DNA of 64,000 bases from Escherichia phage dhabil: sequence record MN850621.1; one strand, 5' to 3'. This document shows, one piece after another, positions 1,043 to 55,639 of this stretch (the first letter of the stretch is position 1; every line of letters begins with the position of its first letter). The notes under the pieces were generated by a model. It saw nothing but the letters and a program-made list of their open reading frames with translations. It was not told the DNA's origin and ran no database searches. A program made the position numbers and the translations under genes.

Positions 1043-1587
1043 TATTCACCACAATAGTTTTGAATTGATTCCCAGTTCAGAGAACGGAGGCCAGTACGGT
1101 TATACTGGATAACTTCGATGCCTGATTCACGGAGGATATCATCCCAACCTTCAGGATTTCGGTCATAGAGTTCAGCATAAACCAGTGTTTTAATTCCGGA
1201 CTGCGCAATAGACTTAGCACAATCTGCACATGGGGATAGTGTCACATACATCGTAGCACCGTCAATAGAACTTCCTGTACGAGCTGCGAACAGGATAGCA
1301 TTCAATTCGGCATGGATTTCATTTTTGGATGACCATGCGGCATGGGCCATACGATGTTCTTTAAGAAGAATCGATTTATGGGACATTCGTGCTGGGTCAT
1401 ACACAACACGAGTCCAGTCCTGTTCCACTGCATGGTCACAACAGTTAACGCCACCAGACGGAGAACCATTATACCCTGTAGAAATAATACGGCCATTCTT
1501 TTCAATAACCGCGCCCACTTTCCATGAACAACATTTTGATTCCTGAGAAATCAAATAGGCAATCTGAAGATATGTACTTGCTTTCAT
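1042..1587 (-). CDS. cd: dCMP deaminase
   Basis: 181 aa; zinc-dependent deaminase motifs HAE and PCADC; position matches T4 cd. Confidence 0.9.
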   Translation of the reverse strand: MKASTYLQIAYLISQESKCCSWKVGAVIEKNGRIISTGYNGSPSGGVNCCDHAVEQDWTRVVYDPARMSHKSILLKEHRMAHAAWSSKNEIHAELNAILFAARTGSSIDGATMYVTLSPCADCAKSIAQSGIKTLVYAELYDRNPEGWDDILRESGIEVIQYNRTGLRSLNWESIQNYCGE

Positions 1588-1817
1588 TCTACGAACACTC
1601 GCTGCGCTTCGACCAGACCATCAGAACCAAGTTTTAACTGGGTAATCTGGCCGCCATTTTTAGGATTAACGATAACCAATACCGCACGTGGTGATTCCTG
1701 AATTACTCGCAGAGTTGCATCAGGAAAACGTACAGAAACCTTATTAATCAGAGCCTGAGCAAATTCTTTAACTTTAACTTGGAACTGCTCTACAGTAATG
1801 GGTTGTTCGCTCAGCAT
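1584..1817 (-). CDS. Hypothetical protein (77 aa)
   Basis: ORF with 4-nt overlap to cd; no motif recognised. Confidence 0.45.
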   Translation of the reverse strand: MLSEQPITVEQFQVKVKEFAQALINKVSVRFPDATLRVIQESPRAVLVIVNPKNGGQITQLKLGSDGLVEAQRVFVE

Positions 1818-2371
1818 TAGATGGTCTCCAACTTAAGTTGTTTGGTAGTGGTAGCTTGGGTAACGTCGCCTTTAACAATATAACACACTTGTTGGAACGA
1901 ACTGGTCAAAAGCTCTTCGGCTTGACGGTCGGCTTGTTCCTTTGTGTTATGGCGAGAATGAACTTCAATCTTACCATTTTTAACGATAAGCACTTTCCAA
2001 TCCGCAGTGGCTTTTACTGGTTTAGGTCCACCATTTTCAGGAATACTCACCGAGGCCAGTGGACGTACCACTTCAATAAAGTAATCGAATTCATGGCCAA
2101 AAAGGCCTGTTGAATTAAAAAGAACAGCATTTGCATCATCAGGATTACCTGTGATTTTGCTAGGGTCGACAAACATCATCTCGTCATATACACGAATTCG
2201 GCTTACACGTTCACGCCCATTATGGTAATCAATTTCAACTTCAAACGGGTTCATACCTACATACTTGGCAAAAGCTGTATTGAGGCCATAAGAGCCGTTA
2301 TTAGTGAATTTGTTTTTAGTGTATTCGCTAATGAACTTATAAAACTTACGCTCTTCAAAGAACTTACCCAT
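1817..2371 (-). CDS. Hypothetical protein (about 184 aa)
   Basis: ORF track gives 1817..2482; start moved to internal ATG at 2371 (GAGGA 8 nt upstream) because the extension overlaps the upstream ORF. Confidence 0.45.
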   Translation of the reverse strand: MGKFFEERKFYKFISEYTKNKFTNNGSYGLNTAFAKYVGMNPFEVEIDYHNGRERVSRIRVYDEMMFVDPSKITGNPDDANAVLFNSTGLFGHEFDYFIEVVRPLASVSIPENGGPKPVKATADWKVLIVKNGKIEVHSRHNTKEQADRQAEELLTSSFQQVCYIVKGDVTQATTTKQLKLETI

Positions 2372-2433
2372 TTCGATTTCCTCATTTGTTTCGGTAGGAC
2401 TACTATACCACAGTCCTACCGTGTTGTAAACAC

Positions 2434-2718
2434 TTAAATTGCTTCGACAACTACCGTTTGTTTCTGGAAGTCCATTTTGCATGAAATAGCCAAAATGTGG
2501 TTATCAATTTTAAATGGAACAATTGCAAATGCTGCACCGGGCGTGAGTTGGACAGTGATTGCATCGACTGCATCCGGGAACATGATTTCCAGAATAGCAG
2601 ACAAACGTCCGTGCACTTTTAGTTCAGTCGACGTGTCGACAGGTTCGTATAGGTAATCAGATACAATCTGACTAAAAACTACTTTAACAATTTCAGAATA
2701 AGTAGGGAACATAATCAC
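2434..2718 (-). CDS. Hypothetical protein (94 aa)
   Basis: ORF in operon orientation; no motif recognised. Confidence 0.45.
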   Translation of the reverse strand: MIMFPTYSEIVKVVFSQIVSDYLYEPVDTSTELKVHGRLSAILEIMFPDAVDAITVQLTPGAAFAIVPFKIDNHILAISCKMDFQKQTVVVEAI

Positions 2719-17356: not shown

Positions 17357-18304
17357 TTAATAAAAATCAGCTACTGTAGCAGTTAGTTTAGACAAACCTG
17401 ATTTAACGAAATAAGGATAAACTTTAGATTTCGAAGGTTTGTTATACGTATTATATCTTTCAGTAATTAAAGCAACAATATCATCTGGAATAAAGTCCAT
17501 ATCAATTAAGATTTGGTTTTCACAGAAACGTTCATATTGTTCCTCAGTAAGAAGCGTTTTAATTATATCATGGTCATAATAATTAAGAGCAATTGCTTCA
17601 AGTTCCTTGGCACGAGTGCTAGGAGTACGTTCGCCTTCAACCATTGTCAACCAATAATCACCACGAACTTTAATACTTGCAACGTTATCCTTGCGGTCAC
17701 CTTTAATAACCTTAGTCACACAATCAAGCAGAGCATCACCAGATTTTGTTTTGACGAATTTTTTCTGCATTGGAGACCATTGTTTTACACCAGGGAATTT
17801 ATGAAGTTGGGTAAAGTCACCATCAGAAGAACCAATCATAACCGGATGGCCTTTATCTGTAAGGATACGAGTCAATACAGCAATATGGTCATCAGCCTCG
17901 ATTGTATCGATATTCATAACAATATAAGGCATGTTTTGTTCCAGTTCATCCACAATAATATGCATTGCAGTGAATAAGCCTTCCCAATCAAATGGTGATT
18001 CATCACGTGCCTTGGCACGGTTTTTCTTATAATAAGAAGAATAACGACGACGCCAATAACCTGATTTAGAGTTATCAACACAAATGATTAGTTGGTTGTA
18101 ACCTTGTTTTTTAAAGTCTTTAATGTTTTTCTTGATTGAATTCAACACGAGATGTCGAAGCATTGCCGTGGTTACTTTAGGAAATCCAGCGTTTTCACCA
18201 AATTCTTGGAAAGCCGCAGCCATAATGATTTGGCTGAAATCCAGGAGTAAAAATCCATCTTTTTGTCGGTCTTCTTCAGGAAGTAAAAAATCTAAATCGT
18301 TCAT
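17357..18304 (-). CDS. rnh: RNase H (5'-3' exonuclease / flap endonuclease)
   Basis: 315 aa; blocks GYWRRRY...YYKKNRAKARDESPFDWEG and SSDGDFTQLHK resembling T4 RNase H. Confidence 0.9.
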   Translation of the reverse strand: MNDLDFLLPEEDRQKDGFLLLDFSQIIMAAAFQEFGENAGFPKVTTAMLRHLVLNSIKKNIKDFKKQGYNQLIICVDNSKSGYWRRRYSSYYKKNRAKARDESPFDWEGLFTAMHIIVDELEQNMPYIVMNIDTIEADDHIAVLTRILTDKGHPVMIGSSDGDFTQLHKFPGVKQWSPMQKKFVKTKSGDALLDCVTKVIKGDRKDNVASIKVRGDYWLTMVEGERTPSTRAKELEAIALNYYDHDIIKTLLTEEQYERFCENQILIDMDFIPDDIVALITERYNTYNKPSKSKVYPYFVKSGLSKLTATVADFY

Positions 18305-28892: not shown

Positions 28893-29546
28893 ATGGAACC
28901 AAAAGTAGGATTTTCGATAACAGACCTACTTTTTGGACTTCTTGATAGAATTTTTAAAGATACTTCTTCCGGGAAAGTAGTTTTTTCCCGGGTCCTAGTC
29001 GTAATATTATTGTTCTTTATGGCATTGGTTTGGTATAAAGGCGAGCATATTCTAAACTTTTACAAAGAGACAACTTATGCCTCTTATACTGAAATGATTA
29101 GACAAGACCAGGACAATAGATTTAAAATTGCGGCTATCGAGCAGCTCCGAATAGTGCATTCTTCTTCAGGCGCAGACTTCACAGCAATATATTCTTTTAG
29201 GCCAACCAACATGAATTATTTTGTGGATATGGTAGCTTATGAGGGTAAATTACCGGAAACGGTAGACGCAAAAAATACGGGAGGATTCCCGATTGACAAA
29301 ACGTCAGTAGAGTATATGGCGGGAGTTAACGGGAACTATTTTGAATCATCTACTGAATCTGTGTTTCTCCCTACAAAGGAGAAAACCCATTTCACTTATA
29401 TGTTTTCATGCCCGTTTTTTAATTTGGATAACATCTATGCCGGCTCGATATCATTATATTGGTACGATATCAAACCGGATTTAGGATTTCCTAGACTTTC
29501 GTCTATGTGTGGTCAGGCTGGGAGAACATTAGGTCGAACTCGTTAA
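28893..29546 (+). CDS. t: Holin (T4 gpt-type, lysis-inhibition capable)
   Basis: 217 aa; one N-terminal TM segment and large periplasmic domain; strong similarity to T4 T (ILFG.LDR.FKD...GKV...SRV.VVILLF, NYFVD..AYEGKLP, YMFSCPFFNLDNIYAG). Confidence 0.9.
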   Translation: MEPKVGFSITDLLFGLLDRIFKDTSSGKVVFSRVLVVILLFFMALVWYKGEHILNFYKETTYASYTEMIRQDQDNRFKIAAIEQLRIVHSSSGADFTAIYSFRPTNMNYFVDMVAYEGKLPETVDAKNTGGFPIDKTSVEYMAGVNGNYFESSTESVFLPTKEKTHFTYMFSCPFFNLDNIYAGSISLYWYDIKPDLGFPRLSSMCGQAGRTLGRTR

Positions 29547-41575: not shown

Positions 41576-43393
41576 TTACGACATCCAGGCCTTACGGAGT
41601 TGAGGGTCGTTCCCGAGGAGCATTTCGAACTGTTCTTTCCAATCTTCAGGCAATTGAACTACATCAAATTTAGGGTCTTGAATCATTCGACGGTATTCAG
41701 CTTTCTCAAGAGAACCTAAACCTTTAATATATCGAATAGAATGTTTCGGTAGAGAGTCCTTGGCTTTGGTATAACTAGGAACATCATAAAACCATTCTTG
41801 TTCTTTACCGACCTGGGCAATAATCACCGGAGTTTTACAGAATCTCACTCGACCTTGTTCGAACAATTCAGGCCATTGACTAAAGAAGGCTAGCAATGAT
41901 GGATAAATCGAACCAGTACCATCCACATCAGCATCGGTCATAATGGCGATATTACGATAGTTGGTTTTATCTGCAGGTTCGCCAATAACCAATCCAGTGA
42001 TTGCACAGATATCAAATAGTTCCTTATTCTTCATGATATCTGTTGCTGTCATTCCCCAGGTATTCATAACCTTACCACGTAATGGATAACCACCTTGAAG
42101 GTCTTTATTACGGACTTCAATGAAAGGACCCATAGCGGAATCACCTTCAGTCAAGAACAGGGTTGTATCGGCATCTTTACCGTATAAGTTAGCTTTAATA
42201 TGCTTATGGACCTTGGCTTTAGAAGCTTTCTTAGCAGCTTTAGTTTCAGCAGCCTTTTCAGCTGCTAATTTACGTGCTAAAGCAGCTTCGACGATAGGCA
42301 TAATAAGCCCTTCGTTTTTAAGAATATACTGTGAGATTTTCTTTGCATCAATTTGAATATGATTACGAATTTCACCGAATGGTGACGTCAAACGCTCTTT
42401 AGTCTGGGAATCAAAACGCATATTACTCATATCACGAATGAACATTACCATCGTAAGGCATTCTTTAACACGAGCCTTTGTTACTTCAATTCCACGATAT
42501 TTCTTTTTAATACCAGGCAGAAGGTGCTCACAAATATCATCGAATACACATTCAACGTGGTGACCACCATTCTTAGTGTGGATATTGTTTACATAAGTCA
42601 GTTGACGGAAACCATCTGGAGATGTAGTAAATGCCATTGAGACATTATCGGTTTCTTGAATTACTACATCTTTACCAAATTGATTAGCATACTTTTTAAA
42701 GTTACCATCTACTTTTTTACCATTAAAAGTAAATTGGATACTAGGATAAATTACAGCTAGGGTTTTAAGACGATCTAAAGTAATATCCAGATAAATTTGG
42801 GTCAAACTATTTTCTTCGAAATGGTTAAAGTCTGGAGTGAATATAACCGAAGTGCCTTTATCTTTGGATTTCTTAGTAGTCCAACCTTTGTTTTCCATTC
42901 CGTTAGAACAGTTAACAGTAATCTCATTCTCACCATCAGAGGTGATGCCTGTGAACAAAACGGAGAAGATATTAGTTAAACTACTACCGACACCATTCAT
43001 GCCACCTGTCTTACGCTCTGCGTCATCTCCAAAGTTACCACCAGCCTTTGGAATAGTCCATGCAGCTACAGGACCTGGAATTTGTTCACCGTTTTGGTCA
43101 GTAACCATTGCTTGTGGAATACCACGGCCATTATCAGAAACTGAAACCTGATTATTCTTAATTCGGACATCAATTTTGTTTGCGAATTTAAAATTAGTAC
43201 GAATAGCTTCATCGACAGAGTTATCAATGATTTCATCAATTAATTTAACTAGCCCTGGAACATAGTTCACCTGTGTAAAATTACCGAACAGGAATCGACC
43301 ATGGGCTTCATTAGCACTAGAGCCAATATACATCCCACTACGTTTTTTGATATGTTCAATGTCGGACAGTACTTTAATTTCATTCTTAATCAT
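41576..43393 (-). CDS. 39: DNA topoisomerase II large subunit (GyrB-like ATPase plus Toprim), single unsplit gene
   Basis: 605 aa continuous ORF with GHKL ATPase N-terminus and Toprim region. Confidence 0.85.
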   Translation of the reverse strand: MIKNEIKVLSDIEHIKKRSGMYIGSSANEAHGRFLFGNFTQVNYVPGLVKLIDEIIDNSVDEAIRTNFKFANKIDVRIKNNQVSVSDNGRGIPQAMVTDQNGEQIPGPVAAWTIPKAGGNFGDDAERKTGGMNGVGSSLTNIFSVLFTGITSDGENEITVNCSNGMENKGWTTKKSKDKGTSVIFTPDFNHFEENSLTQIYLDITLDRLKTLAVIYPSIQFTFNGKKVDGNFKKYANQFGKDVVIQETDNVSMAFTTSPDGFRQLTYVNNIHTKNGGHHVECVFDDICEHLLPGIKKKYRGIEVTKARVKECLTMVMFIRDMSNMRFDSQTKERLTSPFGEIRNHIQIDAKKISQYILKNEGLIMPIVEAALARKLAAEKAAETKAAKKASKAKVHKHIKANLYGKDADTTLFLTEGDSAMGPFIEVRNKDLQGGYPLRGKVMNTWGMTATDIMKNKELFDICAITGLVIGEPADKTNYRNIAIMTDADVDGTGSIYPSLLAFFSQWPELFEQGRVRFCKTPVIIAQVGKEQEWFYDVPSYTKAKDSLPKHSIRYIKGLGSLEKAEYRRMIQDPKFDVVQLPEDWKEQFEMLLGNDPQLRKAWMS

Positions 43394-53261: not shown

Positions 53262-53393
53262 TTACTTTGAATTCGCCAAAGCTTCAATGATTTCTCTGTC
53301 TATTTCTTTAGTTATTTCGTTACGTAATAAAATAGCGGCCGAAGCCCTTTTCTTATTCAACTTTTTGAGTTGACGTTTATTTAAACGAGGCAT
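53262..53393 (-). CDS. Small basic protein (43 aa), not in ORF track
   Basis: MPRLNKRQLKKLNKKRASAAILLRNEITKEIDREIIEALANSK; ATG overlaps the gene 56 stop (TAATG); low confidence. Confidence 0.3.
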   Translation of the reverse strand: MPRLNKRQLKKLNKKRASAAILLRNEITKEIDREIIEALANSK

Positions 53394-53914
53394 TAATAAC
53401 CTCGGTCTTGACGAGCAAAGTTCTCGGCATTTTTCAGATAATACAGTTTAAAGATTTCTTCAGCGGTCAGTCCAAGACCCTGGAACATATTAAGAACAAA
53501 GTGCAGAATATCAATCATCTCGAATTTGATTTCGAGCTGGTCTTCAGGAGACAACTCGTCAATACGACGATTACGGAATTCAGCATGTTGGGCTTTCCAA
53601 GGCTTCCACACACTAGAGGCAGCTTTTTCGCCATTACTCATACCGCCAAGAGAAGTCAGCAGTTCACGGAATTCATCATCAATATAATCTTTCTGGTTGC
53701 GAAGCCAATCAACAACTTGACCTGCTGTAGCTAGTTCATCAGGATTGGTGTTGAATTCCGATTTTTCAGTGGCCAGACGAACCTGTAATGATTTCTGCAT
53801 ATCAAGCATAACTTGCAGAGGGTCTTTATCTTCGTGAATCAGAGCATTAAAATAAGCTTCTTCAGCTTTATCAGCACCAGCAATAAGTTGAGAACATTCA
53901 TTAAAATGAGCCAT
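53393..53914 (-). CDS. 56: dCTP pyrophosphatase gp56 (dCTPase/dUTPase, MazG-like)
   Basis: 173 aa helical ORF between soc and primase, as T4 gene 56; assignment by position and size, moderate. Confidence 0.7.
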   Translation of the reverse strand: MAHFNECSQLIAGADKAEEAYFNALIHEDKDPLQVMLDMQKSLQVRLATEKSEFNTNPDELATAGQVVDWLRNQKDYIDDEFRELLTSLGGMSNGEKAASSVWKPWKAQHAEFRNRRIDELSPEDQLEIKFEMIDILHFVLNMFQGLGLTAEEIFKLYYLKNAENFARQDRGY

Positions 53915-54005
53915 TATATTTTTCCTTTTTCAATTCATTAATAAGTTAGATAATTATAAACTGTTAGACTAAAGCGAATAAATATTAATTTAACAGGAGG
54001 ATAAC

Positions 54006-54206
54006 ATGGGCAGTATTTTTTACCAAATCTGGAAATTGGCAGAAAAGAAAGACAAGAAAATGATGTTAGGTTTTCTTGCGCTAGACGTATTCCTTTGGAA
54101 TCTTCTAGTAGTCCCTGTAGCCGCTAGCCAAGGGGTAATTTTACCAGCGGTTACAATGGAACACGTGTTAAGCATAATTGGATTCTTTAGCGGAGTTCCT
54201 GTCTAA
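54006..54206 (+). CDS. Small membrane protein (66 aa), antisense to its neighbours
   Basis: Consensus AGGAGG 6 nt upstream of ATG; two hydrophobic segments; only plus-strand ORF with a strong ribosome-binding site in this minus-strand region. Confidence 0.45.
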   Translation: MGSIFYQIWKLAEKKDKKMMLGFLALDVFLWNLLVVPVAASQGVILPAVTMEHVLSIIGFFSGVPV

Positions 54207-55231
54207 ATTTTAGAATATTTTGAAAGCCTCATTTTTGCCATTAACCCTTGGGCTATATTAGCTTTCATATATGCCAATACATCATTTATATCAGCTTTAT
54301 CTTTCATAACCATATCATTTATATCTTTAGAAGGCCACGGAGCCTTGTCCCAGAATAGAACCCTTTCGCCAGCATCAACTAGGCGTTGCATACGCTTAAT
54401 TGTGTCAGGATGACGGGGTTCATTGTCCATTACCCACGCTCTTGTTTCTTTACATGGAACTACTGATAAGTCTAATGACCCACCAGTAATTGCTATGGCA
54501 TTAGGGACAAATAAAGAATCAATAGGACCTTCCATTACCCACACCAATTGACGTTCGTCAACTGTATCCATTCCATATATTTTTGTAGCTTGGTCATGAG
54601 CTTTTATTGTAATATATTTTTGTGGAGCATCTTTACGTAAGGCTCGGCCCTGAAAACTTTCTATTTGTTTATCCTTATTGAAAATAGGAATAACCAAACG
54701 AGGCTCAGGCATTTCTTTAGAATAGGTTCCTGGATTAACTGAGTTAACCAATGCAGGCCATTCTTTAGTAAACCATAACCGATTCCATTTATTTTCAGGA
54801 ATGCACCGCAACGTCACATATTTGATAATAGGATGGTCCTTCGGCATTCTATCTAATCGTTCGCAGAAATTAAGCTTTTCAATGACAGGCATCTTAGCTT
54901 TAATTTTTTCAGATATCTCCACCTTAGGTGCAGCTTGTCTCCCGAACGATTGCTCTTTATGTTTCTCAAGAATATATTCCCGATATAAATCAGGTTCGTA
55001 TTCGTATAGGTACTTCTTAATTCCTGCCGAATAATCACAGTTAAAACAGTGTAGCATTACAGAGCCGTCATTGGCCGGATAGGCCCAGAATCGAGCTTTG
55101 TTTTCATCTTTTTGGGAGTCACCACATACACGGCAACGACAGTTTAATTTAAAATCACTACCAGTTACTTGTCTGAATTTAGGTTGGTAATTCAAGGCAC
55201 GTACAGCAAATTCTCTATCGACATATGACAT
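54203..55231 (-). CDS. 61: DNA primase gp61
   Basis: 342 aa; N-terminal zinc ribbon CRCRVCGD...CFNCDY plus Toprim-like core; same length as T4 gp61. Confidence 0.85.
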   Translation of the reverse strand: MSYVDREFAVRALNYQPKFRQVTGSDFKLNCRCRVCGDSQKDENKARFWAYPANDGSVMLHCFNCDYSAGIKKYLYEYEPDLYREYILEKHKEQSFGRQAAPKVEISEKIKAKMPVIEKLNFCERLDRMPKDHPIIKYVTLRCIPENKWNRLWFTKEWPALVNSVNPGTYSKEMPEPRLVIPIFNKDKQIESFQGRALRKDAPQKYITIKAHDQATKIYGMDTVDERQLVWVMEGPIDSLFVPNAIAITGGSLDLSVVPCKETRAWVMDNEPRHPDTIKRMQRLVDAGERVLFWDKAPWPSKDINDMVMKDKADINDVLAYMKANIAQGLMAKMRLSKYSKI

Positions 55232-55269: not shown

Positions 55270-55431
55270 TCATTCGTTTTCGGATTTTTCTTTACGCTTT
55301 TTAGATGGGATTTGTTCAGGCCCTTTGTTGACGACTGCGCCTGAGGTAGTTCCGGAGGCAATATTAGATGGATTTCCATCAGCATCGCCTGCGACCATAT
55401 CTTCGTTCATAACTTCTTTAAAAGATTTCAT
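55270..55431 (-). CDS. Small protein (53 aa), not in ORF track
   Basis: MKSFKEVMNEDMVAGDADGNPSNIASGTTSGAVVNKGPEQIPSKKRKEKSENE; AGGAG Shine-Dalgarno 4 nt upstream. Confidence 0.4.
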   Translation of the reverse strand: MKSFKEVMNEDMVAGDADGNPSNIASGTTSGAVVNKGPEQIPSKKRKEKSENE

Positions 55432-55447: not shown

Positions 55448-55639
55448 TTATATTACGAAAATAGCTTTATCACCATTTGCATCAGTGACTTCATACGTAT
55501 CTTCGTGGTAAAGTGGAATAATCCAAGTTAAGCCATCACCTGCAATAATATGGATAGCTTCTTGGTCTTTTGATACGATTTCATATTCTTCGAACAGTTC
55601 GAATACAGAAATCTTAGAGCCTGTACACATTGCAGTCAT
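55448..55639 (-). CDS. Hypothetical protein (63 aa)
   Basis: ORF in operon orientation. Confidence 0.45.
   Translation of the reverse strand: MTAMCTGSKISVFELFEEYEIVSKDQEAIHIIAGDGLTWIIPLYHEDTYEVTDANGDKAIFVI

Follow-up and report, generated by a model that had tools for sequence, protein, structure and literature searches.

Setting of the gene

The subject of this work is a small open reading frame (ORF) of Escherichia phage dhabil (sequence record MN850621.1), located on the plus strand between gene 56 and gene 61 and tentatively read here as coding for a late, holin-derived membrane protein. The DNA analysed is a stretch of 64,000 nucleotides, called the window in what follows, which belongs to a Dhakavirus, JS98-like, of the subfamily Tevenvirinae of T4-like phages. 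Over the 2 kb around the ORF, its identity is 99.2% to phages dhaeg and CLB_P2, and about 94% to JS98. The following features make up the locus:

54006..54206, plus strand: the ORF, a coding sequence (CDS) of 66 amino acids and a stop codon with an ATG start, for a predicted small membrane protein of the T4 Dam.1 family (PHROG 2024).
53393..53914, minus strand: gene for the gp56 dCTPase, divergent from the ORF, with a 91-bp spacer between the two.
54203..55231, minus strand: gene for the gp61 DNA primase (342 amino acids).
54203..54206: four-base overlap of the convergent ORF and primase genes, where the ORF stop TAA occupies 54204-54206 and the primase stop TAG is the complement of 54203-54205.

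A preliminary description, made from the letters alone, had presented the ORF as the sole plus-strand frame of a 25-kb minus-strand block, converging on the stop codon of the primase gene. The convergence is borne out, the stops overlapping with 54203-54206 common to both CDSs, and the extent of the block was even understated: the annotation of CLB_P2 places 73 consecutive CDSs, over about 34.5 kb, on one strand, with the homolog of the ORF alone on the other (74 CDSs). The same description mentioned, as uncertain, that T4 carries dam nearby; this is correct, as the gene lies between gene 56 and gene 61 of T4. It also held that no methyltransferase ORF is present here, and indeed the gap between genes 56 and 61 is only 288 bp in the window, leaving no room for such an enzyme.

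The overlap with the primase gene is dispensable. It is replaced by gaps of 17 nt in JD18 and 2 nt in CGG4-1, and in Bp7 a homing-endonuclease gene intervenes between the two, which suggests that the overlap of the stops reflects compaction, not coupling. The homing-endonuclease gene is inserted exactly between the ORF and the primase gene in some Dhakaviruses (Bp7, at positions 1708..2463 of locus L003; ABTNLS3, E33 and UGJNEcP3).

Coding status

At the base composition of the window a run of 66 codons free of stops has, by our own calculation, a probability of about 0.015 per frame. Such a length is not significant alone, and the evidence beyond chance is conservation. Substitutions at codon positions 1, 2 and 3 number 9, 4 and 35 in the comparison with Bp7, and 11, 6 and 40 in the comparison with Potts1; nonsynonymous divergence (dN) is 0.10-0.13 and synonymous sites are saturated. 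Of the reading frames, plus frame 0 alone stays open throughout the 15 phages compared. The protein matches phrog_2024 with E = 6.5e-28, its residues 1-64 aligning with positions 1-64 of the 65 in the profile. The initial reading of the locus, that of an antisense gene for a small membrane protein between genes 56 and 61, is therefore supported by the substitution pattern, by the conservation of the frame and by the PHROG match. An antisense ORF of 51 amino acids (54020..54175), which has third positions in common with the plus-strand ORF, could in principle explain the substitution pattern; it was rejected as its source, since its frame has stops in every phage compared.

It might be objected that the ORF is a product of chance, or an annotation artefact, in an AT-rich spacer. 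The length of the frame would allow it, and the gene is unannotated in the reference records of JS98, IME08 and T4. However, this is already refuted by the comparative data: purifying selection acts on the gene, its frame is kept, some residues are invariant throughout the family, promoter and ribosome-binding signals are conserved as well, and close to 1000 phage records contain a homolog. That the ORF is a true gene coding for a protein is practically certain on this comparative evidence; purifying selection on it is strong, and in its plus frame only. It has no second family member in the window, where a hidden Markov model (HMM) of the family matches 54006..54206 only.

Extent of the family

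Translated searches (tblastn) returned 292 phage records for the Dhakavirus-type subfamily and 699 for the T4-type subfamily, which comprises Tequatrovirus, Mosigvirus and relatives. A profile search of 5.8 billion proteins yielded 116 small proteins of 41-73 amino acids, the long contigs that carry them having the size of T4-like genomes, and an HMM search through all of 1.84 billion cluster representatives found only 21 matching clusters. By these searches the family is small and restricted to phages. The comparison across T4-like genomes, suggested in the preliminary description, was run and showed that homologs occupy this slot, with this orientation, in each of seven genera (Dhaka-, Gapriver-, Marfa-, Kanagawa-, Jiaoda-, Moon- and Gelderlandvirus), where they abut or overlap the 3' end of the primase gene on its gene 56 side. 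In all, a homolog so placed is known from at least nine T4-like genera. This synteny was seen in JS98, CLB_P2, Bp7, Potts1, VR26, IME523, CGG4-1, CIP9, PEi20, JD18, Moon, STML-198, ECML-359 and T4.

T4 itself is a case in point. In its reference record (NC_000866) the unannotated gap of 310 bp between dam and gene 61 holds a plus-strand ORF of 66 amino acids at 17738..17938, with GATAAATA and GGAGG upstream, the predicted late box lying at 17709-17716, and with a stop codon that overlaps that of the primase gene. Its product matches phrog_2024 with E = 4.6e-31, and the proteins of JD18, STML-198 and CIP9 match the same profile. The name 'dam.1' for this homolog was found in the T4T record HM137666 only. 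Identity between the window protein and the T4 protein is about 22%.

The two represent distinct paralog types, which occur in tandem in Gaprivervirus VR26, as gp031 (T4-type) and gp032 (Dhakavirus-type), at 1295..1492 and 1501..1701 of locus L005. The tandem of ECML-359 (1462..1659 and 1726..1884 of locus L013) has a broken Dhakavirus-type copy: an ORF of 52 amino acids begins inside the gene, and what follows is out of frame. SP18 and RZ give partial matches only. These broken or partial Gaprivervirus copies suggest redundancy, with decay of one copy.

Annotation of the family is uneven. Homologs are mislabelled 'DNA packaging ATPase' or 'dCTP pyrophosphatase' in the records of SAKp28, UPEC01, EI, P8, CGG4-1 and dhaeg, appear as 'holin' or 'holin family protein' in OE5505 and EAWsc9 and as 'hypothetical protein' in CLB_P2, and are left out of the annotation in JS98, IME08, VR7, PEi20 and IME523. 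Literature searches on dam.1, on small or unannotated T4 proteins and on late antisense transcription turned up no publication about this gene.

Predicted expression signals

Two signals precede the gene on its own strand:

53977..53984, plus strand: predicted T4-type late promoter box AATAAATA, the A(-13) variant of TATAAATA, with a predicted transcription start near 53990.
53995..54000, plus strand: the Shine-Dalgarno sequence, AGGAGG, separated from the ATG by 5 nt; the homologs keep GGAGGAT or GGAGG ahead of their starts.

The box ends 21 nt before the ORF, and each of the 15 homologous loci has an nATAAATA box that precedes its ATG by 13-22 nt. The window holds, on its two strands together, 12 nATAAATA sites, against some 30 expected from base composition (an estimate), and seven of the 12 precede an ORF equipped with a Shine-Dalgarno sequence and a start codon. 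Among the ORFs so preceded are a long one of tail-fibre size, the T holin gene and the late gene soc, the last with the same AATAAATA variant. Of the 50 T4 late promoters listed by Geiduschek and Kassavetis, 32 had the perfect TATAAATA and nine had the A(-13) form, the commonest variant (PMC2988020); T(-13) is poorly conserved among T4-like phages (Nolan et al., PMC1524935). Judging from these signals, the ORF is probably expressed late in infection.

As for translation, the AGGAGG noted in the preliminary description does stand before the gene, at 53995-54000, but its spacer to the ATG is 5 nt (ATAAC) and not the 6 nt first given. Seven copies of AGGAGG occur on both strands of the window, and this one alone has an ATG at a distance of 4-9 nt; it is the strongest predicted ribosome-binding site there.

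A pattern scan of the plus strand after the ORF found no terminator-like structure, and the folding z-score is +1.4, so that the plus transcript probably extends, as antisense RNA, into the primase gene. The function might then reside in the RNA: a late plus transcript running antisense through the primase gene and the genes upstream of it, or colliding with transcription toward gene 56, would help to shut off early genes, the peptide being secondary. Early and middle genes do occupy the strand opposite to the late-promoter box over 34 kb or more, and T4 late transcripts are of either polarity, with several sites where both strands are transcribed at different times (PMC2988020). However, selection bears on amino acids and not on nucleotides, third positions being saturated while the motif residues stay invariant down to 20-30% identity; moreover, the homologs retain the strong Shine-Dalgarno sequence, the gene persists where a homing-endonuclease gene has come between it and the primase gene, and a role of the RNA only would not keep the frame open in nine genera. 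With selection directed at the protein sequence, a primary role at the RNA level is quite improbable.

The minus strand of the spacer has signals of its own. Upstream of the ATG of gene 56 (at 53914), positions 53953-53976 show an arrangement like that of a middle promoter: a MotA-box-like CGCTTTA (53976->53970), an 11-nt spacer and a perfect TATAAT (53958->53953). Bp7 has an exact TGCTTTA at the position equivalent to CGCTTTA. With this middle-like promoter back to back with the late box of the plus strand, the 91-bp spacer resembles a region of divergent promoters, one middle and one late. According to a RefSeq note, the gene 56 transcript of T4 also serves as the primer of oriA.

Similar boxes were observed before other small genes. 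A perfect TATAAATA at 55452 (minus strand) lies 13 nt before the Shine-Dalgarno sequence and ATG of a gp61.1 homolog (ORF 55270..55431, 53 amino acids), and AATAAATA at 41577 (minus strand) precedes an ORF of 50 amino acids; both may be late promoters for small genes of the early strand, as for soc. On the far side of gene 56, between soc and that gene, 53262..53393 (minus strand) is a Lys/Arg-rich ORF of 43 amino acids, whose stop codon overlaps the stop region of gene 56; it is among the annotated genes of CLB_P2, and CGG4-1, JD18 and STML-198 have equivalents.

Protein sequence and predicted topology

The product can be divided into four segments, given here with the plus-strand positions that encode them:

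54006..54059: residues 1-18, a basic amphipathic N-terminus, predicted to be cytoplasmic (charge map, hydropathy, AlphaFold2 helix 4-14).
54060..54128: residues 19-41, first predicted transmembrane (TM) helix with the W31-N32...P37 motif, equated with TM2 of the PF11351 holins (hydropathy, AlphaFold2 helix 17-41, hhalign register).
54129..54155: residues 42-50, conserved turn S-Q-G-V-I-L-P-A-V (G43, L46, P47), predicted to be periplasmic (alignments; non-helical in AlphaFold2).
54156..54203: residues 51-66, second hydrophobic helix with the conserved acidic E52, equated with TM3 of the PF11351 holins; no charged tail follows.

Basic residues gather at the N-terminus (K10, K14, K15, K17, K18). 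The continuous hydrophobic stretch that follows runs from about residue 19 to residue 66, broken only by a Pro/Gly-rich turn and by a single D and a single E, and the Kyte-Doolittle score over 19 residues reaches its maximum, 2.05, at residue 20. AlphaFold2, supplied with an alignment of 54 sequences, predicts helices at 4-14, 17-41 and 51-62, with a pLDDT confidence score of 65. The two hydrophobic segments announced in the preliminary description are a fair account of this layout, except that the second is shorter and weaker than the first. It is very probable that the product is a membrane protein. The likely topology places the N-terminus inside, because of the positive-inside rule, and the turn in the periplasm, with the second helix either recrossing the membrane or lying in it.

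In the 54 sequences W31, N32 and P37 are invariant, while A39, G43, P47 and G63 are at least 90% conserved. The family signature is W-N-x4-P-x-A-x3-G-x2-[LI]-P in a protein of 60-75 amino acids with a basic N-terminus, and the window protein displays it in full. The conserved core of the family is thus the end of the first predicted helix together with the turn.

Direct scans of the window protein against Pfam (E <= 10) and NCBIfam gave nothing meaningful. A Foldseek search of viral structures with the AlphaFold2 model retrieved family members only, everything else having E > 0.1. Unrelated families of small membrane proteins were rejected as relatives, the 54 members having only scattered sub-threshold matches in Pfam. 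A Hok-like type I toxin-antitoxin system, considered because of the antisense layout, was rejected as well: there is no sequence similarity, and a strong ribosome-binding site behind a late promoter is not the design of a repressed toxin mRNA.

A probable remote relationship with PF11351 holins

The trail to holins started from a distant family member, P0123, whose weak tblastn match led to the annotated holin of phage C72C1. That holin scores 60.8 bits with PF11351 (GTA_holin_3TM) and also matches phrog_2024 (E = 6e-4), with the conserved motif in register. Three distant family members have sub-threshold PF11351 matches (E = 0.03-0.1), which all fall in one C-terminal portion of that profile. 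Alignments of profiles with hhalign gave the following probabilities:

Narrow PF11351 alignment against the T4-like family: 84.6%, P 6.7e-6.
PF11351 with eight diverse phage holins: 92.2%, P 5.7e-7.
Distant Dam.1-like sequences added as well: 95.3%, P 2.4e-8.
Control with reversed profiles: 0.5-0.7%.
Control with 40 column-shuffled profiles: at most 2%.

The probability climbs as the profiles become more diverse. On the PF11351 side this diversity came from holins drawn from annotated phage records, the collection of homologs having yielded nothing below 75% identity to the query. The alignment of the core, made of TM2, the loop and TM3, covers 45-52 columns.

Intermediates between the two families were found in viral contigs. 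A scan with distant members gave 58 loci, most on contigs of up to about 40 kb and encoding proteins of 82-103 amino acids; when viral contigs were scanned with the P0121 group, one locus only was recovered. Two of these intermediates, L107 and L115 (96-97 amino acids), exceed the gathering threshold of PF11351, with 25.8 and 30.9 bits for a threshold of 24.8, and an HMM built from T4-like proteins only scores them at 29-41 bits (library-wide E = 1e-4 to 1e-5). Phage_lysozyme genes are found at 0.9-1.4 kb from these intermediates, and one of the linked lysozymes is 55% identical to T4 lysozyme.

The contigs concerned (L104-L158 and L162, from IMG/VR, mostly of about 13-40 kb, from small phages or prophages) show a conserved module. 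Beside the 82-103-residue intermediate, it holds a lysozyme of the T4 e type, a spanin-like protein made of a TM segment and a coiled coil, proteins of about 190 and about 110 amino acids and an endonuclease VII-like gene. The phages that carry this module have several T4-like genes in common.

In the PF11351 family itself, the holins of the isolated phages CRP-701, ParKuw1, MEP301 and ZRG1 abut endolysins. Holin activity has been shown for a member, TeaA of vibriophage ICP1, which dinitrophenol triggers and which makes the proton motive force collapse (PMC7182436). These proteins, classed as PF11351 or PHROG 3427 (TeaA, the holins of gene transfer agents, and those of C72C1, CRP-701, ParKuw1, MEP301 and ZRG1), share with the ORF product the core formed by TM2, the loop and TM3. 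Within this core both have a proline in the helix, a glycine and a proline in the loop, an acidic residue after the loop and a glycine near the C-terminus, and both have basic residues before the first aligned helix. By contrast, the ORF product is about half the size. Taken together, the profile comparisons and their controls make it likely, with good probability, that the 66-residue protein descends from the TM2-loop-TM3 core of the PF11351 holin family.

Proposed function and other explanations

The sequence of events that we propose is as follows. Late RNA polymerase, with gp55/gp33 and the gp45 clamp, would initiate at about 53990, and a short leader with AGGAGG would drive efficient translation of the ORF. 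The 66-residue product would enter the inner membrane as a helical hairpin, with its basic N-terminus in the cytoplasm, TM1 at about residues 19-41 and a second helix at about 51-66, the conserved G-x-x-L-P turn facing the periplasm. With respect to the ancestral holin of the three-TM (3TM), gene-transfer-agent (GTA) type, the T4-like version would have shed an N-terminal domain of about 60 residues and the basic C-terminal tail. Late and abundant, the protein might self-associate in the membrane and tune its permeability or the timing of lysis, as a non-essential accessory, a minor factor of the holin or antiholin kind. We give to this reading, that of a late-expressed, holin-derived, two-helix accessory in lysis or membrane permeability, a probability of roughly 0.4.

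Several observations weigh against it. The window protein and the 54 T4-like members have no match to PF11351 even at E <= 10, the threshold of 24.8 bits being out of reach, and by Pfam's own test the ORF product is not a member of this family. It lacks the 60 or so N-terminal residues of PF11351 (amphipathic helix, linker, D14/D19, Q45...A53), only 18 residues preceding its TM segment; it lacks the GWRP..GW motif, with KKMM where the holins have WRP; and it lacks the basic tail MR[ST]Y[DE]K, ending in GFFSGVPV with no charge after E52. For short hydrophobic proteins, profile matches are more error-prone than for soluble domains. The AlphaFold2 model is of moderate confidence (pLDDT 65), and its second helix, with 12 residues, is short for a membrane span. 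The gene is not adjacent to an endolysin gene, its flanks being those of the dCTPase and the primase.

Genetics adds to these reservations. T is the proven lysis trigger of T4, with RI and RIII as antiholins, and T4 defective in t neither lyses nor stops respiring. From the latter it follows that the ORF protein is no autonomous holin at its natural level. The window has a canonical T holin gene at 28893..29546 (PF11031, 223 bits); with this holin present and T4 t mutants failing to lyse, the ORF protein is most likely not the lysis trigger. To our knowledge, decades of rapid-lysis (r) genetics never picked up this locus.

There is also a somewhat different possible history, in which a holin-derived hairpin, real, late and embedded in the membrane, was co-opted for a job that has nothing to do with lysis. 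This might be late superinfection exclusion, resistance to lysis from without, the anchoring or recruitment of proteins, or the countering of a membrane-associated defence of the host. The loss of both cytoplasmic domains of PF11351, the lack of linkage to an endolysin and the presence of a complete T holin in the phage all fit such a change of use, as do the host-interaction genes, sp and dmd for example, of the neighbouring 61.x region in T4-like phages. The best-conserved part of the protein, the predicted periplasmic turn G-x-x-L-P-x-V, would suit a binding surface as well as a pore, and the decay of one tandem paralog in some Gapriverviruses suggests a dispensable, redundant function. However, nothing positive was found for any specific role of this kind. 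The exclusion proteins Imm and Sp of T4 are early, whereas the ORF has a late promoter box. Furthermore, relatives of 70-82 amino acids reside in putative lysis modules of small phages, which argues that even short forms can keep a role in lysis. We regard a non-lytic function of this sort, the main rival of our reading, as possible, if doubtful.

The reading of the ORF product as a lysis or permeability accessory also has a bolder form. The protein, a minimal descendant, with two helices, of the 3TM holins of TeaA/GTA type, expressed from a late promoter of its own, would then be a second, overlooked lysis protein in T4 and in essentially all enterobacterial T4-like phages, gating or joining the T lesion, or depolarising the membrane, and in this way setting the timing of lysis or lysis inhibition. 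This we consider unlikely.

Significance

Part of this was already on record: the family is in databases as a hypothetical protein (PHROG 2024, 'dam.1' of T4T, CLB_P2), and a few records say 'holin'. What is new here is the extent of the family together with the gap in the T4 reference annotation, the reading of the gene as a late one, and controlled evidence for a truncated variant of the 3TM holins. T4 serves as the reference for work on the lysis of phages and on lysis inhibition, and yet a conserved gene for a membrane protein, late by its predicted signals, is missing from its RefSeq annotation. Holin ancestry would turn a 'hypothetical protein' into a specific and cheaply testable proposal, that of an accessory holin or antiholin, or of a holin core put to another use, and it makes a consistent annotation possible, as a Dam.1-family, holin-like membrane protein. 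Were the protein truly a second lysis protein, the classical scheme of T4 (T, E, RI, RIII and the spanins) would be incomplete, and the family would be the remnant of an ancestral cassette, combining an e-type lysozyme with a 3TM-type holin, that is still found in small phages. Were its function trivial or redundant, it would be an ordinary conserved accessory gene.

Comparison with known systems

Beyond the PF11351 holins, four systems bear comparison with the ORF. The superinfection immunity protein Imm of T4 has two TM segments and is, as the ORF product would be, a small, hydrophobic, non-structural protein of the inner membrane. It differs in being the product of an early gene on the early strand, and no sequence similarity to the ORF product was detected, the family HMM matching no other ORF of the window.

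The T holin of T4 belongs to the same phage group and is, as predicted for the ORF product, a late-expressed component of the inner membrane. However, it has one TM helix and a large periplasmic domain, and the two proteins are unrelated in sequence and architecture; the 66-residue protein has no match to the PF11031 (Phage_holin_T) profile.

Class II holins and pinholins, of which S68 of phage 21 is an example, come closer in shape. They are small proteins with two hydrophobic helices, a tight turn and both ends probably in the cytoplasm, which is the layout predicted here; on the structural model, a two-helix hydrophobic hairpin is plausible for the ORF protein. By contrast with these holins, the ORF product lacks a charged C-terminal tail, a dual-start motif, a lysis-cassette context and detectable sequence similarity.

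The nearest counterpart is dam.1 of T4. The upstream neighbour differs, being dam in T4 and gene 56 directly in the window. The two proteins also differ in paralog type, as noted above. Common to both are membership of PHROG 2024, a length within 61-74 amino acids, the strand, a position abutting the primase gene, the nATAAATA box, the GGAGG and, in the proteins themselves, the motif W-N-x4-P-x-A-x3-G-x2-L-P.

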